DNA of 64,000 nucleotides, from positions 2,149 through 66,148 of the forward strand of contig CAWASW010000015.1 in assembly GCA_963784785.1 (NCBI GenBank). Reading direction: 5' to 3'. Both the position numbers and the translations under genes were made by a program. The stretch is from Candidatus Woesebacteria bacterium (GTDB lineage: Bacteria > Patescibacteriota > Microgenomatia > UBA8517). Position 1 is the stretch's first letter. Every line of letters begins with the position of its first letter. Of the stretch, positions 4,250 to 62,190 are shown piece after piece. The notes beneath the pieces are model-generated. The model saw only the letters and a list, made by a program, of their open reading frames with translations, was not told the DNA's origin and did not search any database.

Positions 4250-4675
4250 TTATCTGGAGACTTGTACACTAACTGAGTTTTCTGCATTAGCCGCATTAAC
4301 TGTTACTAAGCTATTTGCATCAAGCGCTACTGTGTATCCCGAATTAGATGCCGTTCCTCCTTGAGGATCAAGTGGCATAGATTTCAAATATTTTGCAAGT
4401 GGAACTGATAAATTGTCGCAAGATCCACAGCTCCCAAGTTCTGTTGCTGCTTGTCCTGCTGTAAGTCCTGCTGGAAGTACTCCTTTATTATCAACTACAT
4501 ATTCATGAATAGCTGTTAGAATATTATTAACGTCTGAGAATCTTCTAGAATTTCTTGCATCAGCAAATCTAGTTACTGGATCCAATGCCACAAAAACAAC
4601 TGTTGTCAAAATTGCGATAATTGCGATAACTACAAGTAGCTCGATTAAAGTAAAGCCTTTTTTAATGTTTTTCAT
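4250..4675 (-). CDS. type IV pilin (major-pilin-like paralog 1)
   Basis: Likely start is internal MKNIKKGFTLIELLVVIAIIAIL, a class III prepilin signal (G^FTLIE). Cys pair in the C-terminal half. Ends ...VSR like paralogs 2 and 3. Confidence 0.85.
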   Translation of the reverse strand: MKNIKKGFTLIELLVVIAIIAILTTVVFVALDPVTRFADARNSRRFSDVNNILTAIHEYVVDNKGVLPAGLTAGQAATELGSCGSCDNLSVPLAKYLKSMPLDPQGGTASNSGYTVALDANSLVTVNAANAENSVSVQVSR

Positions 4676-4676
4676 A

Positions 4677-5135
4677 TTATCTAGATACTGTAATAGTCTG
4701 TGCATTCTCTGCCGCACATGCCTTGACTGTTACTATATTATTAGCATCGGCAACTACTGAGAATTTAGTTGTTGATACAGATCCAGCGTCAGGATCAAGT
4801 GGCATAGACTTTAAATATTTTGCAAGTGTTGTAGACAAATCAAGACATGCAGCTGCAGCGCCGGTACAGGCACTTGCTCCTCCAGACGCGCAATTACCTA
4901 GTTGTTTTTCTGTAGTAGTAATACCAGATGGTATAGTACCGTTATTATCAACTGTGTATTCGCTAACGGCAGTTAAAATATTATTTACATCACTCCATCT
5001 TCTAGAATTTCTTGCATCTGCAAATCTCTGTACTGGATCAAGTGCCACAAAAACAACTGTTGCCAAAATTGCGATGATTGCGATAACTACAAGAAGCTCG
5101 ATCAAAGTGAAGCCTTTTTTTATTTGCTTTTGCAT
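4677..5135 (-). CDS. type IV pilin (major-pilin-like paralog 2)
   Basis: MQKQIKKGFTLIELLVVIAIIAILATVVFVALDP...RFADARNSRRWSDVNNILTA conserved N-terminus. Variable Cys-rich middle. C-terminal ...ITVSR. Confidence 0.85.
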   Translation of the reverse strand: MQKQIKKGFTLIELLVVIAIIAILATVVFVALDPVQRFADARNSRRWSDVNNILTAVSEYTVDNNGTIPSGITTTEKQLGNCASGGASACTGAAAACLDLSTTLAKYLKSMPLDPDAGSVSTTKFSVVADANNIVTVKACAAENAQTITVSR

Positions 5136-5140
5136 ATATA

Positions 5141-5818
5141 TTAATATAACCATCCACGAAAAATCATGTCAAGTAGCAATAACATTGTTAAGCTTGAAAT
5201 AGAAACTACACTCCAGCTAAACATCAGAACTATATTAAATACTGCTCTTTTTTTAGAAATTTTTATGTTTAAAGAATTACTATCCTTTCCACTAATATCA
5301 TTTTTTAATGATATTCCAATAATTGGGTTTTCATTTCTTGTTATAGAAATTTCTTCTGGTTCAATAGCGATTATTTCCAATGGTAAACTTTGGAGGATTT
5401 CATTTAGTTCTTTAAACCTATCCTTAACAAATGCGAATGCCAACACGTTTTTCTCCTCCTTGCCTTGCACTGTTTCCTTATAATCCCAATCTTTATCTTC
5501 TAACTGCTCTGGAATAATTTCTGAAATCTTACGATAAATGTATTGCCTTTCCTCGCTACCTTGAATATGGGCAGGTATCGTAAAGTTCACAACATACGCA
5601 AATTCATTTCCTAATAATAGATATGCAGATTTTATTTTACTTTTTTCAATAAGTGCAGATATTGATTCAGATTTTAATCGATGAATGATTTTAGGCTTCT
5701 TTGACATGACAACAGTCGACAATTCAAATGAATTATTTTTTACATAAAGTACATTTACTTTTTTACTAAAAAAACTAAAGTTACCTTGAGACTTGGATTG
5801 TGGCATTATTTTCTGCAT
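5141..5818 (-). CDS. hypothetical protein with C-terminal TM anchor, in pilus locus (possible assembly component)
   Basis: 225-aa ORF with a soluble N-terminal domain and a C-terminal hydrophobic segment (VFNIVLMFSWSVVSISSLTMLLLL). Position is between pilin genes. Confidence 0.4.
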   Translation of the reverse strand: MQKIMPQSKSQGNFSFFSKKVNVLYVKNNSFELSTVVMSKKPKIIHRLKSESISALIEKSKIKSAYLLLGNEFAYVVNFTIPAHIQGSEERQYIYRKISEIIPEQLEDKDWDYKETVQGKEEKNVLAFAFVKDRFKELNEILQSLPLEIIAIEPEEISITRNENPIIGISLKNDISGKDSNSLNIKISKKRAVFNIVLMFSWSVVSISSLTMLLLLDMIFRGWLY

Positions 5819-6245
5819 TGCACGCTGTAATTAATATTACATTATTACTGTTCTTACTAACAGTGTAATATGTTTTTTCTGTACTACCTGCCTTTGGATC
5901 AAGCGGTATAGAATCAAGATATGGTTTCATCTGTCCAGATATATCCAGACATGATGCCTCTGCATTTATACATACAGTATTACATCCACTAGATAAAGTA
6001 CCTAACTGTCTTACTTTTTCGTCGATTCCAGCTGGAAAAGATTTGTTTTTAATTATAAATCTATACATTGCAGTTGATATATTATTGACGTCACTCCACC
6101 TTCTAGCGTTTCTTCCTTCGGCGAATTGAGTTATTGGATCTAGAGACACAAAAACAATTGTTGCTAATATTGCAATAATTGTTAAGACAATTAACATCTC
6201 TAGTAATGTAAACCCCGATTTGTGATTATTTAATTCATAATTCAT
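5781..6245 (-). CDS. type IV pilin (major-pilin-like paralog 3)
   Basis: Likely start MNYELNNHKSGFTLLEMLIVLTIIAIL. Conserved RNARRWSDVNNI. Variable middle with Cys. Ends ...IQVSR. Confidence 0.85.
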   Translation of the reverse strand: MNYELNNHKSGFTLLEMLIVLTIIAILATIVFVSLDPITQFAEGRNARRWSDVNNISTAMYRFIIKNKSFPAGIDEKVRQLGTLSSGCNTVCINAEASCLDISGQMKPYLDSIPLDPKAGSTEKTYYTVSKNSNNVILITACNAENNATIQVSR

Positions 6246-6267
6246 AATTCGTAATTCATATTTGCAT

Positions 6268-6642
6268 TTATATTTCAATCCAACTTGTAACTTGCACTGT
6301 GGTGCTACGTACTGCACTTATCTGCACACTTTTACTATAATTAAGAATAGTAGCACTGACGGTAAAAGTCCAGTTATTTCCAACGTTAGTGATTCCAGTG
6401 ACACTGCAGGTCCCCTCAGGGATAGTAAAACTAGCAGAAATTGCATTATTATTATTTAACCTCAAAAGTGCATCCTCAGCACAGCCTTCAACAAGAGCTA
6501 ATGTCTGCTCTCCTTTTTCACTTGATAACGAAGATTGAATATCATTAATCGAAAGCAAAGAGACAGAAGTTCCCACAATTAAGACCACTGCAAGTATTAC
6601 CAAAACTGATGTTATAGCAATATATCCACGATTATTTTTCAT
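6268..6642 (-). CDS. minor pilin, PilX-like
   Basis: Likely start MKNNRGYIAITSVLVILAVVLIV, a PilX-type N-terminus. Small secreted domain. Confidence 0.6.
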   Translation of the reverse strand: MKNNRGYIAITSVLVILAVVLIVGTSVSLLSINDIQSSLSSEKGEQTLALVEGCAEDALLRLNNNNAISASFTIPEGTCSVTGITNVGNNWTFTVSATILNYSKSVQISAVRSTTVQVTSWIEI

Positions 6643-7151
6643 TTTGATCTTACCTCCGCACTTCCAGCAAAAGTTCCAGTTTTTTGCCATTCTTGTCTTG
6701 TACCATCCACGCTTAATGTAAATCCAAATTCGATATTATTAGAAAGAATTCCACTCGATCTATTTGTGAATGTTAGTGCAGATGCTATTACCTTATTGCT
6801 AGTTAGTGAAACATCATTTGTCATTGCCGTACAATTTACAGATCCCCCACCCCACGCCATTTTAATTACTCCGCCAGATAAATATATTCTAGTAGGATTT
6901 CTGGCAGGAGTACTTGATGCTAAACATAAATCTCCGACAGCAACGGAGTTTATTGCAGAGGCATTTCTAATTTCGTACATAATCTTTTTAGAAACAAAAC
7001 GTTGATCTTCATTTATCAACAGCTGGACATTAGCTTTAACGCTACCATAAATGATATCCCATGCAAAAAGTACTGCACCACTAATAAAAATGGCAACCAA
7101 TCCCATATATAGAATTAGCTCGATTAGGGTAAATGCTTTATAAATTTTCAT
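6639..7151 (-). CDS. prepilin-type N-terminal cleavage/methylation domain protein (minor pilin, PilW/FimT-like)
   Basis: MKIYKAFTLIELILYMGLVAIF prepilin signal. Confidence 0.75.
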   Translation of the reverse strand: MKIYKAFTLIELILYMGLVAIFISGAVLFAWDIIYGSVKANVQLLINEDQRFVSKKIMYEIRNASAINSVAVGDLCLASSTPARNPTRIYLSGGVIKMAWGGGSVNCTAMTNDVSLTSNKVIASALTFTNRSSGILSNNIEFGFTLSVDGTRQEWQKTGTFAGSAEVRSK

Positions 7152-8956
7152 ATTCTTCTAAATGCAAAACTATATGGACTATTAATGGCCTGTGGTAAAG
7201 TCAGTTGCAACACCGCACCATCTGTATTGGTCCAGGTAAATGCAGGAGCTGTTGTCATAACTAAACGTTTAGCAAACAAATCACTAGAGCTGTCTGAGGT
7301 CATCGATAGTAACTGATCCTTACTTAGCGGATCCATTTGTAAATCAATATATCTCGGACCGTTTGGAGCAGGTGCTTGAGCAGCATCAGTTTGTTTAACA
7401 AAGGATCCATTGTTTCCCACGTACCAATCTATCAGATTTGAACCTCGGTCAGCATATCGCACTATCGACCTAGTGGTAGCCCCAGATATTAACCATGCAG
7501 TTGAGACTATTTTTGATCCTGCGATAGGAGTAGCACATGAATTATCGGGGTCATTAGTATTTGTCCAGGCAGTTCCACTCCAATAACCCACCTGTAAATC
7601 ACTTCCACCGTTACCAATTGAGGCAAAAACTATTTGATCTGTATCTGGATTTGCTGAAATATCCAAATTTGTCGCATCATTAGCCCATGTAGGTGGATTT
7701 GTAACAACAGCATTCCATGTACATCCAGTTACACCAGTTGCAGTACAGGTTCTATATCTAACCCCATTTACAGTTGCACTTCCAGCTGAATTTGACCAGA
7801 TGACCATCACATCCCCCGATGAAGATTCATATTCAACATCAAAATCTTCGATATCTTGAGCTACTGCAATTATCTCCAACGACGCCTCAGTAACTGCTGT
7901 TGGTTCATTACCCCAACCAGTTCCGTTCCATACCATAGCAGATAGATCAGATGCGGAATCTGCCCAGATAGCAGTAATTAAATTTGAATTTGAACGTCTA
8001 TCCCAAGCCATCTTGACCCACTGAACAGTTCCAGTAGTTCTAACAGGATCAAGATTAGTTGCCGCACCCCAATTTGCAGTTCCACAAGCGGAGCCACCTG
8101 ATTTTGTACGATACGCCATTTCATTTGTGGTTCCAACATTTGTGCCGTACAAAACTATTGCATCACCTGAATTAGTTTCATACGAAATATCAAATCTTCT
8201 TGTTGTTCCTGCACCACCAACGGTAGTAGTCCACTCATTTACCCAAGTAGATCCATCAAAACACATGACTTGTAGCACACCTCCATTTGTAACGTAACCG
8301 GCTATCGCCTCAGTTTTTGTTGGTGAACTTCTAATTGTAAATGTTTGACCAGAAGCTCCTAAAATTGTTGGCGACTCTACTGAAAAAGCATTAGTAGAAG
8401 TATCAAAAGATCTGTACTTTGGTGTAGTCGTGGTATCACCATAAATTAGAAACCCTCCAGCTGCAAGGATTGATTTTCTAAAGTTAGTCAAATAAGTAGT
8501 TAGTGTTACAGCGTTACTACGAAGTGGTGAAAATAACCAACTGACAACTGAGGTCACCTTTTTAATATCAGAATCTAATGTTCCTCCTGAGGCAACAATA
8601 TTTCCAGAGACATCTCGATTGACGTCCGATACTGTAACTACTCGGGTATATTTACCCAGAGTATTGTTTAGCCCGCTCCAGGCCCAACTAACACCATTTA
8701 GCCCAAGACCACATCCTCCCGTACATGTTGTGGCTATAAAGGGGCTGGTCCAACCTTGGTTTTTAATAGATTTTACTGCATCAATTCCTGCTTGAGCAAA
8801 AAGATTGGCTGTTGTTTCTTCTTCACCCAACCTGTTAGTAGAAAAACTTCCGGTTACTGTCGTAACTCCTGCAACAGCGATAATAACAAACAAAGACATT
8901 GCAACAATTATTTCGACTATTCCAAAACCGTCATCCTTTCTTAATTCATAATTCAT
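7148..8956 (-). CDS. large minor pilin / pilus-tip adhesin-like protein (602 aa)
   Basis: MNYELRKDDGFGIVEIIVAMSLFVIIAVAG prepilin-like N-terminus followed by a ~570-aa T/S/G/N/W-rich domain. Confidence 0.7.
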   Translation of the reverse strand: MNYELRKDDGFGIVEIIVAMSLFVIIAVAGVTTVTGSFSTNRLGEEETTANLFAQAGIDAVKSIKNQGWTSPFIATTCTGGCGLGLNGVSWAWSGLNNTLGKYTRVVTVSDVNRDVSGNIVASGGTLDSDIKKVTSVVSWLFSPLRSNAVTLTTYLTNFRKSILAAGGFLIYGDTTTTPKYRSFDTSTNAFSVESPTILGASGQTFTIRSSPTKTEAIAGYVTNGGVLQVMCFDGSTWVNEWTTTVGGAGTTRRFDISYETNSGDAIVLYGTNVGTTNEMAYRTKSGGSACGTANWGAATNLDPVRTTGTVQWVKMAWDRRSNSNLITAIWADSASDLSAMVWNGTGWGNEPTAVTEASLEIIAVAQDIEDFDVEYESSSGDVMVIWSNSAGSATVNGVRYRTCTATGVTGCTWNAVVTNPPTWANDATNLDISANPDTDQIVFASIGNGGSDLQVGYWSGTAWTNTNDPDNSCATPIAGSKIVSTAWLISGATTRSIVRYADRGSNLIDWYVGNNGSFVKQTDAAQAPAPNGPRYIDLQMDPLSKDQLLSMTSDSSSDLFAKRLVMTTAPAFTWTNTDGAVLQLTLPQAINSPYSFAFRRI

Positions 8957-8961
8957 AATTC

Positions 8962-9429
8962 TTAATTTGTGTTTATCCCTCCTCCAACATTTACAGTTAC
9001 TGTTGCAGTTTCTTGATTTGTGTTTATGGTTACAAACATTGCGCTTGACGGTTCTCCGCGTAAATTAAAGGTGGTATCGTTTAGGTTTGTGACAGTCACA
9101 CTACTAGGAATTGTAAAATCTTCTTTAATAGTTGGACTAGCACATGACCCTGAATAAAGCCTAATATTTGTACCATTCTTGCATATTCCCCATATAGCAT
9201 TATTTTTCTTATTCATAGCGTTTCCTTGTGATTTTCTAATGGAAGAAACTACTTTATCTATTGTCGTATCAAAGTTAGTTTGAAGTACAAAATTTGCCAA
9301 AAATGGAGAGGTTGCAGCACCAAGAATTGCAATTATAGAAATTACTAAAAGTAACTCGATTAATGTAACACCAGATGAATTATGAGGTATGAAGTATGAA
9401 TTATGAAAAAATTTACTATATACTTTCAT
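8962..9429 (-). CDS. pseudopilin (GspH/FimT-like) with extended leader
   Basis: ...GVTLIELLLVISIIAILGAA prepilin motif. The 19-aa leader is encoded by 7-bp repeats (ttcataattcatacttcatacctcataattca). Confidence 0.7.
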   Translation of the reverse strand: MKVYSKFFHNSYFIPHNSSGVTLIELLLVISIIAILGAATSPFLANFVLQTNFDTTIDKVVSSIRKSQGNAMNKKNNAIWGICKNGTNIRLYSGSCASPTIKEDFTIPSSVTVTNLNDTTFNLRGEPSSAMFVTINTNQETATVTVNVGGGINTN

Positions 9430-9557
9430 ATCGCATTTGAAACAACTTTGTTATAATCTGTTTTTGGCAAACTAATGCAAAGACGAATAATTAATTTTGA
9501 AAATTGATAAGTTCTTTCGTATGTGTCATTTTTGTAATTCATTTTGCATATCTATTT

Positions 9558-19037: not shown

Positions 19038-19232
19038 GATACCGTTGCATAAACGGTCACTTGTTTAGCCTTAAATGATTTGTTGTTTTTCGTTAAAATA
19101 ATAACACTTTCGTCCGATTACTCGGACAATGCTGAAATTGGTTGTAGAAGCGTTTACTTAGTGAAACTACCTTTTTAGGCCGAAAGTATAGTAAAATCAG
19201 TGTGTTTTAGGAGACCGAAATGTAACGGTCTC
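19038..19232 (+). repeat. 195-bp repeat copy A (perfect inverted copy of 30750..30944), abutting the tRNA-Thr 3' end
   Basis: Exact reverse-complement identity to 30750..30944 over 195 bp. Contains hairpins CCGTT-gcata-AACGG and GAGACCG-aaatgtaa-CGGTCTC. The 5' and 3' ends can also pair with each other (ACCGTTGCAT / ATGTAACGGT). Confidence 0.95.
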
Positions 19233-21323: not shown

Positions 21324-22355
21324 TCCAATTAAAACAAACAGCCAGAACATTATGTGGGGGTAGAATAGACTATTTGCAAATGTGCTGTGAATTAATACAG
21401 CAAAGAATGAAGAATATAGAATGTTGAATGTAGAATCAAAAGAACTCATAACACGTAACACGAAACTAATAAACAGAACCAATCCAACAATGCCTGTTGT
21501 GGCAAGTAAAAATAAAATTGAAGAATCGGCGCCGTTACATGCATGTGAGTCAATATTTAAATCACTTAAATATAATCTACGTGCAGAACAGATATTGTTA
21601 AACCCTACGCCAAAAAGAGGCGATTTTTTAATAATCTGCAGGGTTTCTGCATAATTAATTAATTTACTATTTCCACTTACAGTTCTGGTTAAAGTTGTCC
21701 CTTCACCTATATTTTTAGGTAAAAATAAAACTATTAATATAAAAAAAATAAGTGCAATATTTTGTTTTTTAAATAGTAAAAATAAACCAGCAACTAAATA
21801 CGATGCCCGAGAATAAGTAAATGCTAAGCTGAATAGCAAAAAATACATAACTTTCGGGAACTTTTCATATGCCAAAACAATTCCTAAAACTAAAATCAGC
21901 CCTAAATAGGTAGGATCTAAAAATGTGCCAACCATCCGTAACAGATGATCATCCCAACCCAAATATTTAAGAGATGTTAAGTCAGGCCAAAGTAAGTATT
22001 GGAGCCAGCCAAAGATAGTCGTTGCGACGGCAACAGATAATAGATTTAAGATTAAAGATTTACGATTTAAGAAATAATTTGAAACGTAAACGGCGATGAG
22101 GGAATAAGAAATGAGACGAACTAAATACAAGATTGAATTAAGATTTACGAATGAAGAATTAAGAAATAGTCCAAACATGCAGGACATAACAAAATAAATG
22201 AAATATCTGTACCACGAGGGGTAAATAGGTTTCTTTAAAACAGTTATTACAGCAAGGATTAAAACCAAAACGTCAAACAGGTTAATAAAACCAATTTTAA
22301 ATAATTGTCCAAAGGGAAATAGACTTAAGATTGCAAAAAATATAATTTTGTCCAT
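21291..22355 (-). CDS. O-antigen ligase / polymerase family membrane protein (Wzy_C-like)
   Basis: About 10 TM helices with a large periplasmic loop. ...FTYSRASYLVAGLFLLF is typical of the O-antigen ligase family. Confidence 0.65.
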   Translation of the reverse strand: MDKIIFFAILSLFPFGQLFKIGFINLFDVLVLILAVITVLKKPIYPSWYRYFIYFVMSCMFGLFLNSSFVNLNSILYLVRLISYSLIAVYVSNYFLNRKSLILNLLSVAVATTIFGWLQYLLWPDLTSLKYLGWDDHLLRMVGTFLDPTYLGLILVLGIVLAYEKFPKVMYFLLFSLAFTYSRASYLVAGLFLLFKKQNIALIFFILIVLFLPKNIGEGTTLTRTVSGNSKLINYAETLQIIKKSPLFGVGFNNICSARRLYLSDLNIDSHACNGADSSILFLLATTGIVGLVLFISFVLRVMSSFDSTFNILYSSFFAVLIHSTFANSLFYPHIMFWLFVLIGLQTEVSRQTS

Positions 22356-22915
22356 GAGAGATATGAATGTAATGATTGCATTATACTAAATACAACATGT
22401 TTTGATTTAACTAAAGTCACAGCAAACTTTCCAATTGGAAAAAATATAATTTTAAATAAGTTGGATCTCTTTCCTTCATCAAGGTTGGCTTTAGCATGAA
22501 GTGTCGAATAGTTGTTTATTTTTAGCAAATAATCTGAAAGATTATTTGCGGTATTGTGAATAATGTAATTATCAAACATCACACCCGCGAGGTGTGATTT
22601 TTTTGGAAGCCAAACCTCATGAACTGCCCTTACCCATTTTCCTGTCCCCTTTCTGACAAGTCGTGTTGGATAATCTATTCCTATTAACTTACCTAAAAAA
22701 TATGTTTTTCTGGGTAATTGATAACTTGAAAATTCATTGGAAATTGGAAATTGGAAATAAGCGGAGCTTGCCACATTGTGATTGGAAATTGACTCATCCG
22801 AGTCAAGGAACAAATTCCATTCACTTTTTGATTTATCAAGAAGTTCATTTCGCTCATGTCCAAAATCTGTAATATTAGGTTTGTTTAGTTGTAAAATATT
22901 TAACATAATAAGCAA
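22325..22915 (-). CDS. glycosyltransferase family 2-like fragment (N-terminally truncated, possible pseudogene)
   Basis: DxD (LFLDSDE) only ~36 aa from the ORF start, which overlaps the flippase 3' end. The Rossmann N-terminal part is missing. Contains the palindrome-encoded SHLAGVMF. Confidence 0.45.
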   Translation of the reverse strand: MLIMLNILQLNKPNITDFGHERNELLDKSKSEWNLFLDSDESISNHNVASSAYFQFPISNEFSSYQLPRKTYFLGKLIGIDYPTRLVRKGTGKWVRAVHEVWLPKKSHLAGVMFDNYIIHNTANNLSDYLLKINNYSTLHAKANLDEGKRSNLFKIIFFPIGKFAVTLVKSKHVVFSIMQSLHSYLSWTKLYFLQS

Positions 22916-24116
22916 TTAGTACCGGCAGCGTTAAAAGTGTAGCAATTATAGTTGCATATCCTGCACCAAGAATCCCAAAAATTTTTATTAATGGATAAAG
23001 AATTGCAATCAAACAAACTGTAGAAAAAAGTGTAATGTAAGTAACTACTTCTTGTTTATCAATTCCTAAAAACAATGAAAAGAAGGAGTTAGAAATCGCT
23101 TTTATTACACCATAAATAGCAAGAATTTGTAGTACAGGTGCTGCTGAGACCCAAGCATTTCCCAAGACAAATTTAATTATCTCAATTGGAAATTTAAAGA
23201 CAAAATATCCAAAAGGAAAAACAAACAAACAGATAATTAGCAAAGTTTTCAAGAATGCATTTTTAAGTCTAATTTTATCCTCTTTTAAACTTACATAAAT
23301 AGGAAAGGTGACTTTATTAAACACTTCACCGACTTCAGACACAGGAAGAGTTGAAATTTTGTATGCTTGTTGATAAATTCCAAGGCTTGCAGTTCCCATA
23401 ACGCGGCCAACTACGATATCGTCAATATTTTGAAATAAATAGTTAGCAACACCTGCTCCTGTTATCCATTTACCTCGGTTAATTACTTTCAATGTTTTCT
23501 CTTTTTCAAAAATAAACTTCGGTGTAGGTTTAAAGTAAATAAATGAAAGAATTACTTCCAAGGCAGTAGATATAATCATGGCATAAATTAAACTGTTCTC
23601 GGATTTTGTAGCAACTCCAATTGAAATTGCAAAAATTGCGTCAACCAAAAAGATCACTGAGTCATACTTAAACTGTTTGTTAAATTCCAAATTTTTTTGA
23701 TATTTAATGCAAGCAGGATTTATAAAACCACGGATAATAGGGACAATTCCTACAAGATATAAAATAAAAGTTGCATCAGTATTTTTAAAATAGTTAGCAA
23801 TATATGGAGCAAAGATAAATATTAAAATTCCAATTAAAAGACCTCGAATTACAGAAACAACCCAAGCAGAATCGATATATTCATCAATTTTTTCTTTTTG
23901 TTGAACTAAAAATATATTAATCCCAGTTTCAGTTAGCATTTCGAGAAATCCCAAAACCAAGGTTGCAATTCCATAAATTCCAAATTGTGCAGGAAGTAAA
24001 ATACGAGCAAGGATCGCAATTTTAATAAGTGCTAAACTTCGCGTAAAAACACGTAACGCCCCCATCCAACTAATTCCGTTTAAAGCAATTTGAAAATATC
24101 CCATGACTAAAACCAA
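22875..24116 (-). CDS. polysaccharide/O-unit flippase (Wzx, MOP superfamily)
   Basis: 413 aa, 12-14 TM helices, flippase-like N-terminus (…ALNGISWMGALRVFTRSLALIKIAILARILLPAQFGIYGIA). Confidence 0.7.
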   Translation of the reverse strand: MVLVMGYFQIALNGISWMGALRVFTRSLALIKIAILARILLPAQFGIYGIATLVLGFLEMLTETGINIFLVQQKEKIDEYIDSAWVVSVIRGLLIGILIFIFAPYIANYFKNTDATFILYLVGIVPIIRGFINPACIKYQKNLEFNKQFKYDSVIFLVDAIFAISIGVATKSENSLIYAMIISTALEVILSFIYFKPTPKFIFEKEKTLKVINRGKWITGAGVANYLFQNIDDIVVGRVMGTASLGIYQQAYKISTLPVSEVGEVFNKVTFPIYVSLKEDKIRLKNAFLKTLLIICLFVFPFGYFVFKFPIEIIKFVLGNAWVSAAPVLQILAIYGVIKAISNSFFSLFLGIDKQEVVTYITLFSTVCLIAILYPLIKIFGILGAGYATIIATLLTLPVLIAYYVKYFTTKQT

Positions 24117-25008
24117 TTATACAACCAAAGTCCGATACAAATTGAAGTATTATTCCCCAAAGACCAGCCTTACATACAGTGTATAGGGTATAGAGAATAG
24201 CATATAGAATAAACAAAACACTGTTTTGAAAAAACAAAGTCACTCCTAATATGTATCGTGCAAAGATGGTTAGTACTTTTAAGTTGTGTGTTCTCCACTT
24301 TTTTACAGGGTGCCACCAAACATCAGACTCTGCGTCCCCTTTTGCATACCTATAAATCTTCAATCCAAAATCGTAAATCGATTCTGGCATTTTCCAATCA
24401 ACAATTGCCTTTTTGGCTACAACAAATTTAGCACCAGCATTAATTAAATTAATATTAAAAACAGAATCCTCCGCAGTGTCGTTTAAATTTTCAGGAAATC
24501 CACCAACTTTTTTAAAGATAGTTTTTGTAAAAGCCATTGATCTAGCAGAAGGCAAAAAATCTGATTTCATGTCTTGCTGTTTTACTCCAAGAAAAACCGC
24601 CTCGGCCTTTTCAAAATTATTTCTCGCAATCATTCGGTAAAATCCGGCCACTACAATATTAAATACACCCCCGAGGTGTACTTTGTTATAGGGTTTAACC
24701 ATATTCTCTAACCAATCTTTGTGTGGCACACACCCAGCATCAGTAATAGCAATAATCTCATTCCTTGCCATTCGTATGGCCAAGTTCCTTCCTGCCGATC
24801 TTGATATCTCTGTTTTGTTTATAAATTGTAAATTTAGTTTTGAATATTGTTTGATAAATGGTGTTTGGTAATTGGTGTTTATTGTTGCATCCGCAACAAT
24901 CACCTCATCCGCTTTTAATGTCTGTTTATCCAAAGCATTAAGCAGTTCTTGAATAGTTTCTTCCTTTTCATTAAAAGTTGTGATACAAACCGAAACTTTT
25001 AATTCCAT
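24070..25008 (-). CDS. glycosyltransferase family 2
   Basis: VSVCITTFNEKE…(DxD) ITDAG, with C-terminal TM helices. Confidence 0.75.
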   Translation of the reverse strand: MELKVSVCITTFNEKEETIQELLNALDKQTLKADEVIVADATINTNYQTPFIKQYSKLNLQFINKTEISRSAGRNLAIRMARNEIIAITDAGCVPHKDWLENMVKPYNKVHLGGVFNIVVAGFYRMIARNNFEKAEAVFLGVKQQDMKSDFLPSARSMAFTKTIFKKVGGFPENLNDTAEDSVFNINLINAGAKFVVAKKAIVDWKMPESIYDFGLKIYRYAKGDAESDVWWHPVKKWRTHNLKVLTIFARYILGVTLFFQNSVLFILYAILYTLYTVCKAGLWGIILQFVSDFGCIIGFSHGIFSNCFKRN

Positions 25009-30749: not shown

Positions 30750-30944
30750 GAGACCGTTACATTTCGGTCTCCTAAAACACACTGATTTTACTATACTTTC
30801 GGCCTAAAAAGGTAGTTTCACTAAGTAAACGCTTCTACAACCAATTTCAGCATTGTCCGAGTAATCGGACGAAAGTGTTATTATTTTAACGAAAAACAAC
30901 AAATCATTTAAGGCTAAACAAGTGACCGTTTATGCAACGGTATC
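30750..30944 (-). repeat. 195-bp repeat copy B (inverted copy of 19038..19232), abutting the tRNA-Val 3' end
   Basis: Exact reverse complement of copy A, in the same position relative to its tRNA. Confidence 0.95.
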
Positions 30945-30949
30945 ATAAG

Positions 30950-31021
30950 TGGATGACGTTGGGATTGAACCAACAGCCTCTTCGATGTGAACGAAGCGCT
31001 CTACCACTGAGCTAGTCATCC
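30950..31021 (-). tRNA. tRNA-Val (anticodon CAC)
   Basis: Minus-strand cloverleaf. Acceptor GGATGAC/GTCATCC, D arm GCTC-AGTGGTAGAGC, anticodon stem CTTCG/CGAAG with loop TTCACAT, T arm GTTGG-TTCAATC-CCAAC. Confidence 0.85.
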
Positions 31022-38394: not shown

Positions 38395-38700
38395 TAATTA
38401 TATAGTAAATATATTCTTAAAGGGCGACTTTTATGAAGACGCGGTACCACCTTTATTACTTCTTAATTTTAAGCTTTAACGGGGCTTATTTACCCCTGAT
38501 TTAATCGGGGACCGAAAGGTTCTATTTTCTTTAAAACGCCAATCTTTCGCTTTAAAGATTTCTTCCTTTAGCAGAGGATTGATTTTCCTCTATTGCCTAC
38601 AAATATTATTATAACACGAAATTTGTTAAATCCCACATCGGGAGTGGTTTACTATTGGCACCTCGGGATATTTATAATAATTTAGTGAATTTTGCGAAGG
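38395..38700 (-). promoter_or_regulatory. T-box riboswitch leader, Ile specifier (AUC)
   Basis: Minus strand has the conserved T-box sequence AATAAAGGTGGTACCGCG (plus 38438-38455). Upstream is stem AGAGGA-AAATCAAT-TCCTCT with AUC plus purine in the specifier loop (about plus 38560-38582). It lies immediately 5' of ileS. Confidence 0.7.
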
Positions 38701-38775
38701 AAAGCAGGGATTTCAAATTTGTCTCCAAAAGTGTCATCATTATCATCTTCTATTTTTTCATCTTCCTCTGCAGAA

Positions 38776-39826
38776 TTATTTGATAAATTTTCTTTTGGTA
38801 GCTTCTGACACCACGCCTGATACAACTTGTCTCATATTAGAAGGCCTCATTTGTGCGATCCTCGATCTGGTTTCATCAAAACCTGTGGCAATTACTGTGA
38901 TTCTTATTGAATCTGATAAATCTTCTTTTATAACAGCTCCGAAAATTATATTGGCATCCTGATCTGCTGCAGCAGAAATAATTTTTGCAGCTTCATCAAC
39001 TTCATACATTGTCATATCTTTTCCACCTGCAATGTTAAACAAAACTCCTCTTGCACCTTCAATTGATAGATCCAATAGTGGTGAGCTCACTGCGAGCTCT
39101 TGCCGCCATCTGTGCTCTGTTTTCCCTGACTCCTGTACCAATTCCAAGAAGAGCTGTTCCAGCTGCGCTCATGATTGCTTTAACGTCATTAAAATCGACG
39201 TTTACAAGTCCGGGAGTAGTAATTATCTCTGCAATTCCACCAACACCTTGTTCAAGTACTGAATCGACAACTTTAAAAGCATCGACAAGCGACATTTTTC
39301 TATCAATTACATCCATCAACCTTTGGTTTGGAATTACAATTAAGGTATCGACAACTTCTCTTAGCTTTTCTATCCCGTCTTCCGCTGCAACGGTTCTTCT
39401 TGTTCCTTCAAATGCAAATGGTTTAGTGACTATCCCAACTGTCAGAGCTCCTGATTCTTTTGCAAGTCTTGCTATAACTGGGGCCGCACCTGTACCTGTT
39501 CCTCCACCCATTCCGGCAGTAATAAACACCATATCAGTATCAATCATTAGCTCTTTTAATTTTTCGATCGACTCCTCAGCGGCCTGAGCGCCGATTTCAG
39601 GATTTCCTCCAACTCCCAAGCCTTTAGTTATTTTTTCTCCAATTTGAATTTTTGTAGCAGCTTTGTTTGTAAGTAGAACTTGAGAATCTGTATTAGCAAC
39701 TATAAATTCCACGCCCTGTATTAATCCATTTTCGACCATTGAAGATACGGCATTGCCGCCGCCACCACCAACACCAATAACTTTTATTTTTGCAATTCTT
39801 GCTGAATCAGGTTTTACTAAGGCCAT
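38776..39826 (-). pseudogene. ftsZ: ftsZ interrupted by an apparent +1 frameshift (two ORFs 39059..39826 and 38776..39147)
   Basis: The N-terminal ORF has the GGGTGTG tubulin signature region and ends ...ENRAQMAARARSELTTIGSIN*. A second frame continues ...AVSSPLLDLSIEGARGVLFNIAGG…ITVIATGF. The join maps to GCGGCAAGAGCTCGCAGTGAGCTCACC (~39090-39115). May be an assembly error rather than a real pseudogene. Confidence 0.6.
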
Positions 39827-41169: not shown

Positions 41170-41895
41170 TCATCTTATGATTGGATTCTTAAACCTAAAA
41201 TCAATTTCTCTAACATCTTCCATTCTAATTCCTTCAGACCCTTCGTTCAAGCGTGAAAAAATCAATTTTAGACTGCCTGCTAACAAATCAATATCACTAT
41301 CGAGTGGAAACAAAATTAATATATCATTTTTTGCATGGGTAGTTAAATAGTTATTAGTAATCTTTGAATCATATACGTTAGTAACGATGTTAATTTTTTC
41401 AAGCAATCTCAATGCAAACAGAGTCTTTTCATCAGTTATTTGTCCAACGGAATAATTTGAATCAGATAGCAAAGAGGTTGACTCTGATTCCTGACTTATT
41501 CCAATAATCAAACCATTTTTATCTAACAAAAAATATGTGCCATTTGAATTTTTGATTGAATATATTGGCTTTTTTAAATTTATTTCTATCTTTATGGTAC
41601 TTGGTATTTTGTATTGAACAATATATGAGCTTAGCCTTACATCTTGTCTTAATTGCATATCAATTTGTTTCTTTACGTGGCTATAGTTGCCTAGTTGAAA
41701 TGAATAATCGCAGGGACCAAGTTGCGATACGCACTCGACTTTGTCTATTTTAATTAATATTTTTATAAATGCAGGTATACAATAGACAAACAATATCATT
41801 AACAATATAGAAAGATATTTAAAAATATTTACTTTTTTAAACCAATCGAATTTACTTCTGGGTATATGATGGATTCTTTGTCTTCTTTTCTTCAT
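41170..41895 (-). CDS. ftsQ: cell division protein FtsQ/DivIB (POTRA)
   Basis: Short cytoplasmic N-terminus, single TM, then POTRA-like IDKVECVSQLGPCD…. Confidence 0.65.
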   Translation of the reverse strand: MKKRRQRIHHIPRSKFDWFKKVNIFKYLSILLMILFVYCIPAFIKILIKIDKVECVSQLGPCDYSFQLGNYSHVKKQIDMQLRQDVRLSSYIVQYKIPSTIKIEINLKKPIYSIKNSNGTYFLLDKNGLIIGISQESESTSLLSDSNYSVGQITDEKTLFALRLLEKINIVTNVYDSKITNNYLTTHAKNDILILFPLDSDIDLLAGSLKLIFSRLNEGSEGIRMEDVREIDFRFKNPIIR

Positions 41896-41923
41896 ACTTA
41901 TAAGGTCAAACCTTTAAAGGTAG

Positions 41924-42595
41924 TCAATCCAAGGTGTATCTTTCAATTAATTCTATATCATTTTTATCAATTTGATTTTCTACGAATGCCTGATATGAAG
42001 ATCTGTTACCGTTTTTGTTTGAAAAATATGACTGTATTACATCTTTCTTAACCCACGAAGTGTTTCTCATCCCAATATGATCTGCATACGATGAGTAAGA
42101 ATCAGACAAATTATTTTTCAATTCCTTCGGATTTAGATGAATGTATCTTGACAGGTGCAACAAATAACTCTCGTTGGAAACGGCCACAGCTTTATACACA
42201 CCCTGAAACAAACTACCCGATCTTTCATATTTTTTATTAAAATAAACTGAATATCGTGTAGCAATTGATCTCATAAAGTTTTTCATGCTACCTACATCTC
42301 TTTGTTTTAGTAACAGATGGAAATGGTTCGGCATTAAGCAATAACAAACTAAATCTATTTGATCAGAATAATTATTTACTAACCTAGGTATACCTTTAAA
42401 GGTTGAACCTTTTAAGGTAACTTCAATTTCAAATTCACTCAAAGGTCTCGATGGAGATAGATATTCCTTAAGGTAACCCAAAAATACTTTATAATCTTGT
42501 TCATCCTCAAAAATTACTCTTTTGTCTACACCTCTGTTATATACATGATAGTAAATCTCTTCGATATCAAATTTTACGCTATTTTTGGCAGGCAT
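41924..42595 (-). CDS. REP-associated tyrosine transposase-like / IS200-like Y1 transposase (Transposase_17 family)
   Basis: YHVYNRGVDKR, HUH CYCLMPNHFHLLL, Tyr region LSRYIHLNP. Flanked by AAGGT-caa-ACCTT hairpins within ACCTTTAAAGGTCAAACC motifs at ~41901-41921 and ~42607-42626, with a third copy inside at ~42392-42420. Confidence 0.8.
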   Translation of the reverse strand: MPAKNSVKFDIEEIYYHVYNRGVDKRVIFEDEQDYKVFLGYLKEYLSPSRPLSEFEIEVTLKGSTFKGIPRLVNNYSDQIDLVCYCLMPNHFHLLLKQRDVGSMKNFMRSIATRYSVYFNKKYERSGSLFQGVYKAVAVSNESYLLHLSRYIHLNPKELKNNLSDSYSSYADHIGMRNTSWVKKDVIQSYFSNKNGNRSSYQAFVENQIDKNDIELIERYTLD

Positions 42596-42634
42596 AAATA
42601 AATATTACCTTTAAAGGTCAAACCTTACAAGTAA

Positions 42635-60106: not shown

Positions 60107-60321
60107 TATTTTTATTCATTCTGGGCAGAATGTGAGTTAGATGGTAATCCATTTCCCTCCATTACTAACCATTTTGCATTTTCTTTCACGCCATGTCAAT
60201 AGTTATTTTCACCGAACAAAGTACATCAATTTAGTTTTGTGTCATTGCGAGGAGCCATGCGACGTGGCAATCCAATATTAGATTGCTTCACTTTGTTCGC
60301 AATGACAAATTGGCTGATTTT

Positions 60322-61008
60322 TTACTTGAAGAAAATATTTGAAGAAATAACTTTCCAACCCTCTGCAGAACCTGAAGGTAGTGTGTCAGAGCTGAATATT
60401 CCATAAGGACCTGAGACAACAGAAGTAATAGTGCTATCCATTAAACCAAATGTCTCCATTGTTACAAAGAAAATTCCTTTTGGTTTTTTATCAAGTTTGT
60501 ATATGAAATTTTGATCAATTGAAACCAATTCTTGGTCAACAGATTGCAAACTCCACTTTGTAGAAAACTTTGCAAGAAGCTTCCCACTTGAGTTTCGAAG
60601 TCTCACTGTAAGACTTCCGTCTTTTACACCTTCATCATATCTAAATTTTCCATTTGATTCTGAACCTAGTAAAAGTTTTCTTTCAAAAGAAGTCTGTCCT
60701 TTTAAATCCACAGTTCCAGGAACACCTTGTGTTCTACCATCTGGTAAGGTGTAAAGAAGCTCATAATCAAGTGAAACTGCCTTTGGCAAAGTAATTTTAT
60801 CTATTTTTAAGTTTATGTAGTGACCGTCAGCTGTTGGAGTAAGGGAGGCAAACGGCCTATCTTTGAAAGCGACCTCTGCTAGTGGAGCCGAGTCATCAAC
60901 GACAACAGCAGTTTTTTTATTTTTAATAATTACGAAAACTAATACTAGTACAATAAGTCCAACGCCAAGGAGAATTAGAGGAAGAAATTTCTTTGTTTGT
61001 TCGTTCAT
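60322..61008 (-). CDS. hypothetical membrane-anchored protein
   Basis: N-terminal TM (LPLILLGVGLIVLVLVFVII) and a ~190-aa extracytoplasmic domain. Confidence 0.45.
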   Translation of the reverse strand: MNEQTKKFLPLILLGVGLIVLVLVFVIIKNKKTAVVVDDSAPLAEVAFKDRPFASLTPTADGHYINLKIDKITLPKAVSLDYELLYTLPDGRTQGVPGTVDLKGQTSFERKLLLGSESNGKFRYDEGVKDGSLTVRLRNSSGKLLAKFSTKWSLQSVDQELVSIDQNFIYKLDKKPKGIFFVTMETFGLMDSTITSVVSGPYGIFSSDTLPSGSAEGWKVISSNIFFK

Positions 61009-61061
61009 CTTAATCTATTTTCAATTCAAATTCCGATATTGTCAACTAGCATCTCTAAAAA

Positions 61062-61817
61062 TACACCTCGGGGGTGTATTCATATTGACACCTTGGTACA
61101 AATGGTTCATAAATAATTATGGCAAGAAGACTTGTCCCCCTTATTACTGGTTATTATTATCATGTTTACAATCGCGGCGTAAACAAACGTAGAATCTTCA
61201 CACACAAACATGAATATGTTCACACAATTAATTTAATTAAATTTTATAATTACGTCGATTATCCAATCAGATTTTCCAAATTTATGCTATTGCACAAAGA
61301 CCAGAGAAAAGAAATCTGGCAAAGATTATCAAAAAGTAACAAGTACACAGACATCCTATCATACTGTTTGATGCCCAATCACTTTCATTTTTTGATAAAA
61401 CAGAATGTTGATCATGGAATATCTAAATTTATTGGTAATTTTCAAAATAGCTATGTCAAATATTTCAATATCAAAAACCAACGTGTAGGCCCATTATTTC
61501 AAGGACAATTCAAGGCAGTTAAGATTGACACGAAAGAACAACTATTACATGTTTCCAGATATATACATCTAAATCCATATTCTTCAGGAATAGTTGCTAA
61601 TACAGAGAAATTAGCAAGTTATAAGTGGTCATCATTACAAGAGTACTTAAATGAAGCCAAATTTCCGTTTTGCGATAAAGACGACATCTTATCTAATTTT
61701 AAATCTAAAAATTCATATAAAGAATTTGTGTTAAATAACGCAGGTTATCAAAAAGAGTTAGAGGATACTAAGCACTATAACCTAGAGTAAGGTACTAAAG
61801 TACACCTCGGGGGTGTA
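61062..61817 (+). mobile_element. RAYT-like unit: Y1 transposase gene bracketed by identical palindromes TACACCTCGGGGGTGTA
   Basis: Identical 17-nt hairpins at 61062-61078 and 61801-61817 in direct orientation, 40 bp upstream and 11 bp downstream of the gene. Confidence 0.75.
61119..61790 (+). CDS. REP-associated tyrosine transposase-like / IS200-like Y1 transposase (Transposase_17 family)
   Basis: YHVYNRGVNKR, HUH CLMPNHFHFLI, Tyr region VSRYIHLNP. Paralog of 41924..42595. Confidence 0.8.
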   Translation: MARRLVPLITGYYYHVYNRGVNKRRIFTHKHEYVHTINLIKFYNYVDYPIRFSKFMLLHKDQRKEIWQRLSKSNKYTDILSYCLMPNHFHFLIKQNVDHGISKFIGNFQNSYVKYFNIKNQRVGPLFQGQFKAVKIDTKEQLLHVSRYIHLNPYSSGIVANTEKLASYKWSSLQEYLNEAKFPFCDKDDILSNFKSKNSYKEFVLNNAGYQKELEDTKHYNLE

Positions 61818-61818
61818 T

Positions 61819-62190
61819 TTAATCTAATACCTTATCTGTCTTTAATAATTCAGTTTTATTTTTACCCGTTAAAACTTGTTTTAAAACTAAAAATTTCACT
61901 ACATTATCTGTATGGTTTGTAAATGTATGCGGGGTATATCCTGTCTCAATCAAATCTCCGACAGATACAATCTGTGTCTTCTCTTCATTATTTTCTTTCC
62001 ATGTTACAGTTAATTCACCTTCAATAATAAATAAAGTTTCAGAAATTTTTTCATGGTGGTGCCAGGTTTGTGTCGAGCCTGCCACTTGTTCATTATAATG
62101 AACCTCGTATTCGTCTCGAAGATAATAATCTACCTTTGTCCCTTCTGGCTTATCTACATGGATAGCATCAGACTTTTTAATAATTTTCAT
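61819..62190 (-). CDS. cupin-domain protein
   Basis: 123 aa. His-containing motif WHHHE…G…H across two beta-strands (TQTWHHHEKISETLFIIEGEL). Confidence 0.6.
   Translation of the reverse strand: MKIIKKSDAIHVDKPEGTKVDYYLRDEYEVHYNEQVAGSTQTWHHHEKISETLFIIEGELTVTWKENNEEKTQIVSVGDLIETGYTPHTFTNHTDNVVKFLVLKQVLTGKNKTELLKTDKVLD

Follow-up and report, generated by a model that had tools for sequence, protein, structure and literature searches.

The question raised by positions 61062-61817 of the 64,000-nucleotide (nt) stretch of Candidatus Woesebacteria contig CAWASW010000015.1 analysed here (the window) was what kind of element is formed by a gene for an HUH/Y1 nuclease (Y1a) and the two identical palindromes that bracket it. 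A preliminary description had proposed a repetitive extragenic palindrome (REP) system with its REP-associated tyrosine transposase (RAYT), the alternative being that the palindromes are simply the ends of an ordinary insertion sequence (IS). Y1a was probably a class-2 nuclease of the subclass 2.1/TIRYT kind, encoded in a single-copy chromosomal module with its cognate hairpin at both ends, and these hairpins would have spread at low copy number. This is a known kind of system in a new lineage and layout, and it involves no new principle. The following features made up the locus:

61062-61078, plus strand: left-end hairpin TACACC-TCGGG-GGTGTA, an exact 17-mer (TACACCTCGGGGGTGTA), DNA fold -6.8 kcal/mol, z = -2.8
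61085-61096, plus strand: inner box TTGACACCTTGG, 6 nt 3' of the left hairpin, whose 5' arm and loop it echoes
61119-61790, plus strand: Y1a, gene for a 223-amino-acid (aa) HUH/Y1 nuclease with NHFH at residues 87-90, the catalytic Y148 in YIHLNP (148-153) and WSS at 170-172
61797-61823, plus strand: right-end unit AAAG-TACACCTCGGGGGTGTA-TTTAAT, with the hairpin at 61801-61817

The Y1a protein carried one further motif, LFQGQF (residues 126-131), and in an alignment of 29 relatives Y14-H15, N18-R19, P86-N87-H88-x-H90 and R147-Y148-I149-x-L151-N152-P153 were invariant, so that the HUH motif and the catalytic tyrosine were judged to be intact. These motifs fit TnpAY1 subclass 2.1, which is defined by NH[YF]H, FQ, Y[IV]HLNP, a length of about 238 aa and conserved serines in the tail; subclass 1.1, the TnpA proteins of IS200/IS605, is defined by the tyrosine motif Y[IV]ENQ and the HUH motif DH[VI]H (PMC6006769, Table 1). 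Subgroup 2.1.2 has been described as heterogeneous for a C-terminal helix-turn-helix (HTH)-like domain; the tail of Y1a was helical in the AlphaFold model (predicted local distance difference test score 90.5), with no Pfam match at E <= 1 to tail domains of this type (Bac_DnaA_C, HTH_23, HTH_28). Pfam Y1_Tnp matched Y1a with 39 bits (cut-off 23). The best NCBIfam model was REP_Tyr_transpos (NF047646), with 50.3 bits for Y1a and matches, below the cut-off of 80, to all 29 aligned family members, whereas transpos_IS200 reached only 15.4 bits (cut-off 55) and weakly matched 2 of the 29 relatives (E about 1e-3). A single-sequence search of the PDB with Y1a gave no match, and a profile search of PDB sequences retrieved ISDra2 TnpA (E = 0.0035) and Escherichia coli TnpAREP (E = 0.034). 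In the fold search the model matched 4er8, E. coli TnpAREP in complex with a REP hairpin, best (E = 3.5e-6); the TnpA structures of IS608 and ISDra2 ranked lower. Motifs, model scores and fold thus all favoured a class-2 (RAYT-type) HUH/Y1 protein, as the preliminary description had suggested, and neither the motifs nor the IS200 score placed Y1a with canonical IS200 TnpA.

It is therefore unlikely, in our assessment, that the locus is an ordinary autonomous IS200/IS605-type IS, with the two hairpins as its ends and the hairpins found elsewhere as decayed ends. The subterminal hairpins do bracket the gene and, like those of IS608, mostly have their loops on one strand; however, the protein has Y...NP instead of Y...Q and NHFH instead of DH[VI]H, its score with the IS200 model (15 bits) is under the cut-off of 55, and no tnpB gene was found in the window.

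The palindromes themselves were as first reported: the exact 17-mer was found at both ends, 40 nt upstream of the Y1a ATG and 10 nt downstream of its stop codon, with the flanks extending 5' as AAAAA (left) and AAAG (right). Allowing as many as 3 mismatches, chance predicts 0.01 occurrences of the 17-mer per window, and the generic core CACC-N5-GGTG occurred 4 times vs. 0.11 expected. The stem of the left hairpin could be extended to AATACACC/GGTGTATT. The loop TCGGG had the same reading at both ends, and the orientation described as direct was therefore correct for the window, but it was not a conserved trait, the right-end loop being inverted in the related loci L205 and L206.

Another explanation is that the hairpins are immobile regulatory signals of the host to which the Y1 gene is merely adjacent: on the left an operator flanked by divergent promoters, on the right a terminator acting in both directions between convergent genes. 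The left hairpin lay midway between two divergent -35-like TTGACA hexamers (61040-61045, minus strand, and 61085-61090, plus strand), the right hairpin separated the stop codons of Y1a and the convergent cupin gene and had T-rich sequence after it on either strand, and the distance from the upstream hairpin end to the ATG was nearly constant in relatives (about 40-47 nt). Against this, the terminator scan around the Y1a gene was empty, the window matches to Rfam at gathering thresholds were two tRNAs only, and a permissive Rfam scan of 60950-61900 gave no credible match. The candidate hexamer 3' of the box in the window was CATAAA, below the reach of the consensus scanner. Together with the hairpins of the relatives, the intragenic copy and the empty sites described below, the terminator and Rfam results made a purely regulatory role quite improbable.

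The hairpin and box anatomy was surveyed in 80 metagenome loci encoding Y1a relatives, with core counts made on the relatives at least 43% identical to Y1a. The strict core CACC-N5-GGTG was found within 130 nt of the gene in 16 of 33 upstream and 18 of 35 downstream flanks, compared with a background density of 0.045 per kb (0.006 per flank), and many of the loci without the strict core had variant hairpins. Outside the fixed core, paired stem positions co-varied among the 52 distinct hairpins (CG 21 vs. AU 17; UA 23 vs. CG 10), the innermost pair being UA in 23, CG in 15 and UG in 6; none of 500 shuffles gave a covariation score as high, and the signal collapsed in slid registers. Distant Y1a relatives occupied unrelated gene contexts, a point in favour of an IS, and the same type of hairpin flanked relatives in these unrelated contexts, which speaks against host regulatory signals.

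In the relatives, an inner box, TTGACACCTNGG, followed 5-6 nt past the upstream hairpin and repeated its 5' arm together with its loop. This box was conserved in L040, L120-L126, L131, L132, L140, L144, L149, L156, L162 and L205, and it changed together with the hairpin in L155 (hairpin AACGAT-CCGGT-ATCGTT, box TTGACGATCC) and L136 (hairpin arm CCACATCCG, box TTGACACATCGGG). On our reading of the alignment, the TTGACA of the box resembles a -35 element, and in most relatives a hexamer of the TAnnnT type follows it after 17-18 nt. Downstream of the gene, most relatives had a reverse-complemented box (CCNAGGTGYCAA-like), 5-8 nt and then a hairpin. Since the hairpin is thus outermost and the box innermost on either side, the two ends form inverted repeats, imperfect and about 35 nt long. 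In the clade of the window the right-end box was degenerate or direct. Loop orientation at the two ends was direct in 10, inverted in 2 and palindromic in 1 of the 13 scorable relatives. Hairpin doublets were seen in relatives L133, L029 and L093, and no doublets of the REPIN type were found in the window.

Three loose units related to these ends were found in the window away from Y1a:

24658-24684, minus strand: 27-nt unit with the third exact 17-mer (hairpin 24664-24680), inside the GT2 glycosyltransferase gene 24070-25008
22578-22598, minus strand: related hairpin ATCACACC-TCGCG-GGTGTGAT (z = -3.9), in frame in the open reading frame (ORF) 22325-22915, encoding SHLAGVM
38630-38666, plus strand: left-end-type unit consisting of CCCAC-ATCGGGA-GTGG, 7 nt and the box (ATCCCACATCGGGAGTGG at 38630-38647, TTGGCACCTCGG at 38655-38666)

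The unit in the GT2 gene (AAAGTACACCTCGGGGGTGTATTTAAT) was identical over 27/27 nt to the right-end unit at 61797-61823. It was in frame, encoded KVHLGGVFN, and fell in a hypervariable, indel-rich loop of about 4-30 residues between KPF and VVAGGY (alignment of 20 homologs). Because the unit has the length of 9 codons and none of the reading frames of the hairpin contains a stop codon, survival in frame within protein loops would be easy. The identical in-frame copy within a coding sequence is difficult to reconcile with host regulatory signals, and as a bare hairpin unit it does not look like a decayed IS.

The second intragenic hairpin was also present, at the same codons and with the same stem, in the ortholog of ORF 22325-22915 in another genome (L200; 64% identity), the loop being CGGCG vs. 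TCGCG in the window. An intergenic region of L200 contained an identical 21-nt twin of its own intragenic hairpin, followed by a box (CCGAGGTGGCAA). Since the L200 copies match each other and differ from the ortholog copy of the window, hairpins alike within a genome and unlike between genomes argue for ongoing copying or conversion. The hairpins at 22578 and 24664 were also considered as one paralogous protein motif, and this was rejected, the two proteins showing no alignment there.

The unit at 38630-38666 matched the left end of the Y1 locus in L202 at about 40 of 48 nt by our count and appears to be a genuine loose left-end-like unit, with the hairpin type of L201 and L202; its resemblance to a lone left end is also compatible with an IS. 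It lay between the ftsZ stop and a T-box-like leader of ileS. The degenerate copies noted earlier near 38630-38670 (ATCCCACATCGGGAGTGG, TTGGCACCTCGG) were therefore real, but they were outside the ileS leader match (38417-38564) in which they had been placed; an assignment to the ileS T-box was discarded, the weak match (33 bits) ending at 38564 and the copies being located upstream of it.

Hairpin copies away from the gene were thus present in the window, and those at 24664-24680 and 22578-22598, both in frame in coding sequences, agree with the intragenic dissemination that had been proposed. In public genomes, the exact 17-mer occurred without a Y1 gene within the 8-kb piece at least 8 times in a Levyibacteriota metagenome-assembled genome (MAG) and at least 6 times in another MAG, mostly in intergenic positions among the matches listed. 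Also among the matches listed, it adjoined Y1 genes 37-59% identical to Y1a in L040, L012 and L079; about half of the listed matches were coding coincidences in high-G+C genomes (for example a conserved Streptomyces gene), and a Bacteroidota gene matched through its HLGGV “HIGH” motif. The proposed REP system was accordingly supported only in part: loose copies exist, but the palindromes double as ends of the module, and in relatives these ends are bipartite, with the hairpin and TTGACACCTNGG.

Other palindromes were seen in the same gene types. In genome L214 the GT2 loop was taken up by another palindromic element (AGATTGCTTC...GCTCCTCGCAATGAC; peptide IASSQAPRND), which corresponded to half of an element type present once in the window:

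60231-60296: unrelated palindromic element GTCATTGCGAGGAGC...GATTGCTTC...TCGCAATGAC, between mraZ and the membrane-protein gene, single-copy in the window

In L200, CCAC-TCCCGAT-GTGG at 9525-9545, the reverse complement of the type at 38633 in the window, was inside a GT4-like gene (9207-10013), another intragenic hairpin of the same polysaccharide cluster. The P0183 loop HLGGARAHPRGV was considered as a clean inverted hairpin doublet; its DNA was a decayed palindrome, and the case, although suggestive, was not counted.

A paralog of Y1a with a palindrome of its own was also encoded in the window:

41924-42595, minus strand: Y1b, paralogous Y1 gene (223 aa), 36% identical to Y1a
42600-42630, minus strand: left end of Y1b, AAGGT-TTG-ACCTT overlapping the palindrome ACCTTTAAAGGT
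41895-41925, minus strand: right end of Y1b, ACCTTTAAAGGT-TTG-ACCTT, immediately 3' of the stop codon
42385-42425, minus strand: two copies of the Y1b palindrome within the Y1b coding sequence, encoding TLKGSTFKGIP in a variable stretch N-terminal to the HUH motif

Y1b had the same Pfam/NCBIfam pattern as Y1a (REP_Tyr_transpos, 42.2 bits). Its palindrome had 4 matches in the window vs. 0.28 expected, all of them at the Y1b locus, and metagenome relatives of Y1b had AGGTC-N-GACCT hairpins on both sides. As the hairpins of Y1b and its relatives differ from the Y1a type, every paralog clade has its own cognate palindrome type. One copy per paralog in 64 kb, with paralogs 36% identical and a separate hairpin for each, is not the pattern of an autonomous IS; no second copy of the Y1a module was found in the window.

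The Y1a orthologs shared one site in the window, L040 (Woesebacteria GW2011_GWB1_39_10), L201, L202-L204 and L205. At this site the Y1 gene was antisense between glyS and a membrane-protein gene heading mraZ-rsmH-ftsL-ftsI; between the right end and glyS there was a cupin gene (window and L201), a NUDIX gene (L205) or nothing. The same-site orthologs were 59-68% identical to Y1a, a level comparable to that of the neighbouring genes, which ranged from 47 to 91%. The hairpin at the site was TACACC-TCGGG-GGTGTA in L040 and L205, and CCCAC-WTCGGGA-GTGG with the box TTGCCACCTCGG in L201 and L202, hairpin and box being in direct order at both ends in L201. The hairpin type thus followed the Y1 clade and not the neighbouring genes, contrary to what host regulatory signals would suggest. 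One site occupied in five genomes by Y1 proteins only 59-68% identical also weighs against an autonomous IS, as does one ortholog found as an identical protein on 22 contigs with like neighbours in all the places shown or collapsed.

Four relatives (L210-L213), with the membrane protein closest to that of the window (83-85% identity), had no Y1 gene. In these empty sites the glyS stop overlapped the start of the next gene (ATGA), and no hairpin was found in the 7.7 kb of the empty-site relatives, which run the same operon without it; again this is at odds with a regulatory signal of the host, while the difference between close relatives in the presence of the unit agrees with an IS. A remnant of the ancestral glyS end (AAAATAGATTAAG) was found directly upstream of the ATG of the window membrane protein (61009-61021, minus strand), and the inserted segment could be delimited:

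61022-62184: segment of 1,163 nt absent from the closest relatives, containing the cupin gene, the right end, Y1a, the left end and the promoter region

About 21-23 nt of the empty-site junction aligned to both borders of the 1,163-nt segment, the border copies being the diverged junction, about 20 nt long, of the glyS end and the start of the next gene. An insert with a cupin gene and a duplication of about 20 nt is not expected of IS200/IS605 elements, which make no duplication. The flanking genes were mosaic: glyS was 89-91% identical to the window in L201 and L213 vs. 51-56% in L202, L205 and L210-L212, and mraZ in the same loci was of two types (79-81% vs. 48-51%), combined differently. 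Because of the empty sites in the closest relatives and the mosaic flanks, the Y1a module was interpreted from these alignments as an accessory insert at one fixed, dispensable site, gained or lost by a route that either left behind or exploited a repeat of about 20 nt. Strict vertical inheritance of the module, as synteny alone would suggest, was weakened by the same empty sites and mosaic flanks. As a separate observation, the mixed combinations of two glyS and two mraZ types indicate frequent allelic exchange around the operon.

These data also fit an accessory cassette at a hot spot of homologous or short-repeat recombination between related genomes, in which the hairpins are retained for cassette-internal reasons and the loose copies arose by gene conversion or chance capture and not by Y1 chemistry. 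The mosaic identities of glyS and mraZ, the variable content between glyS and the right end (nothing, cupin or NUDIX), the diverged direct repeats bordering the insert and the clean ATGA overlap at the empty sites would all be accounted for. Unexplained, however, would be the invariant catalytic residues, the covariation of the hairpin stems, and the identity of the copies within a genome vs. their difference between orthologs. Recombination of this kind is compatible with the favoured explanation as far as movement of the module is concerned, but not for the spread of the hairpins, and as an account of the whole system it is hardly probable.

Several observations weigh against Y1a as a subclass 2.1 nuclease whose hairpins spread from a module with cognate ends. 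The bordering duplication of about 20 nt is not produced by Y1 “peel and paste” transposition, gain or loss of the module may be independent of the Y1 enzyme, and with mosaic flanking genes a shared position is no proof of vertical descent. Loop orientation is not fixed and flips between orthologs, so same-strand recognition of both ends is not assured. The loose units are few (three in 64 kb, two of them intragenic), and the Y1b palindrome has no copy in the window outside the Y1b locus. Automatic and manual searches found no REP-like sequences for subclass 2.1 (PMC6006769). With regard to the proposed REP/RAYT identity, the class-2 protein with its Y...NP motif was upheld, but several further hallmarks were missing: there was no GT[AG]G foot (GTAG or GTGG) at the hairpins of the window or the relatives, the score was under the curated REP_Tyr_transpos cut-off (50 vs. 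80 bits), and the flanking palindromes were not inverted REPs.

For the subclass 2.1 nuclease with cognate hairpins, a mechanism can be proposed by analogy. E. coli TnpAREP and IS608 TnpA bind DNA hairpins, as seen in solved complexes. The CACC-N5-GGTG stem-loop would fold on single-stranded DNA at replication or transcription, and the HUH domain of Y1a would bind the folded hairpin as TnpAREP and IS608 TnpA do. Tyr148 would then cut nearby via a 5'-phosphotyrosine link, and rejoining would be possible. Short hairpin units of about 27-45 nt would be copied or moved to a few other places by this putative route, and would persist in intergenic DNA and, when in frame, in tolerant protein loops. 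Since the box has a -35-like TTGACA and a repeat of the 5' arm of the hairpin, the left end may double as promoter and operator of Y1a, and it would face the promoter of the membrane-protein-mraZ-rsmH-ftsL-ftsI operon; alternatively, the box may be a second recognition site. A bolder proposal is that the Y1/hairpin pair is a DNA-editing and control module retained by the host, in which frame-neutral 27-nt cassettes written by the nuclease would diversify tolerant loops of surface-polysaccharide glycosyltransferases and the left hairpin, located between the opposed -35 boxes of Y1a and of the division/cell-wall operon, would couple the status of single-stranded DNA to expression of that operon. 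This was considered the least probable of the proposals and is highly speculative.

The G+C content of the window was 33%, and the Y1a homologs came from Woesebacteria, Microgenomates and Patescibacteria MAGs, in agreement with the low-GC host resembling the candidate phyla radiation (CPR) that had been suspected from the sequence. The Y1a clade comprised thousands of homologs, mostly from CPR metagenomes. The 17-mer was present in 2 of 2.9 million viral contigs; distant relatives of the Y1 protein were found once on viral contigs and once in phage records, and distant homologs (<38% identity) in 12 of 72,556 plasmid records. On this near-absence of homologs, phage or plasmid cargo was rejected. 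A class-2 Y1 gene 43% identical to Y1a, with an exact 17-mer hairpin upstream, was seen at 696-1376 of L012 (DATBWR010000005.1), a contig of a MAG labelled Candidatus Nanoarchaeia and thus binned as a DPANN archaeon. Class-2 TnpAY1 proteins have been reported from Bacteria only, and this archaeal-binned gene reflects either inter-domain transfer or misbinning.

Among the systems already described, the closest were the TIRYTs/TIRtrons (PMC3733652), subclass 2.1 (PMC6006769) and the Group 1 RAYTs (PMC5581495), which have the motifs, length class and serine tail of Y1a. Subclass 2.1 is the same as Group 1, and both probably equal the TIRYTs of Di Nocera. Low gene copy number and divergent paralogs were further similarities to TIRYT/Group 1, and the genes of the relatives were flanked by imperfect terminal inverted repeats (TIRs), some of them self-complementary, reminiscent of TIRYTs. 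The published TIRYT consensus for the TIR, GGGGWSAS, was matched in part (GGGGTGTA, 6/8 positions). The 16-mers flanking Group 1 RAYTs, too, are only modestly repeated, with about 12 occurrences per genome (PMC5581495). Unlike published subclass 2.1, nearly every close Y1a relative had a covarying stem-loop with an inner box, clearly REP-like sequences, and unlike in the published surveys of complete genomes, the hosts were CPR/Patescibacteria, outside the coverage of those surveys.

In their bipartite build, the ends found in relatives resembled a TIRtron more than a canonical REPtron. E. coli TnpAREP (RayT/YafM; REP/BIME, PDB 4er8) was nevertheless the best structural match and shares the Y...NP motif, and the E. 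coli REPtron also has a single-copy gene, cognate palindromes on both sides and palindrome copies elsewhere; in-frame intragenic palindromes are likewise known for REPs. The differences were the missing GT[AG]G guide tetranucleotide, the additional inner box, the direct hairpins of the window instead of inverted pairs, the far lower copy number (three loose units per 64 kb vs. the hundreds usual for REPs) and the proteins themselves (TnpAREP 165 aa vs. 223 aa, about 15% identical, with Y1a under the NCBIfam cut-off). With IS608 and ISDra2 the locus shared the HUH/Y1 fold and subterminal hairpins that are usually on the same strand at both ends, but not Y...Q, DH[VI]H, multi-copy mobility, a frequent tnpB or insertion without duplication. 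Full-text literature searching turned up no account of systems like this from Patescibacteria or the CPR.

Some other features of the window were recorded. A perfect 195-nt inverted repeat (19038-19232 and 30750-30944) without an Rfam match had its arms directly 3' of tRNA-Thr (18961-19032, plus strand) and tRNA-Val (30949-31021, minus strand), and enclosed an 11.5-kb glycosyltransferase/Wzx/Wzy cluster holding both intragenic hairpins; this may reflect a segment capable of inversion or exchange, or else an artefact of assembly. The ftsZ gene (38682-39826, minus strand) was apparently in three overlapping frames (39059-39826, 38776-39147 and 38682-38825), pointing to a pseudogene, to errors of assembly or to two frameshifts. 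The T-box-like leader upstream of ileS (38417-38564, minus strand; 33 bits vs. a cut-off of 93) kept the T-box sequence GGTGGTACCGCG and lacked nearly all of Stem I, and may be a T-box variant with a short Stem I. At 4461-9384, five genes shared a repeated 5' segment of 62-206 nt (families D1/D2), which looks like the conserved N-terminal hydrophobic part of pilin-like proteins in a tandem array.

The biology of RAYTs and REPs has been derived almost wholly from Proteobacteria, and Group 1/subclass 2.1, the largest RAYT-like group, was described without REP-like partners. The CACC-N5-GGTG stem-loop with the inner repeat of its 5' arm is a concrete candidate substrate for the biochemistry of subclass 2.1. 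The hairpin in frame in the variable loop of the GT2 glycosyltransferase illustrates neatly how palindromic elements shape the sequence of proteins, and the occupied and empty alleles at a single site constitute a natural experiment on the role of the module in very small genomes.

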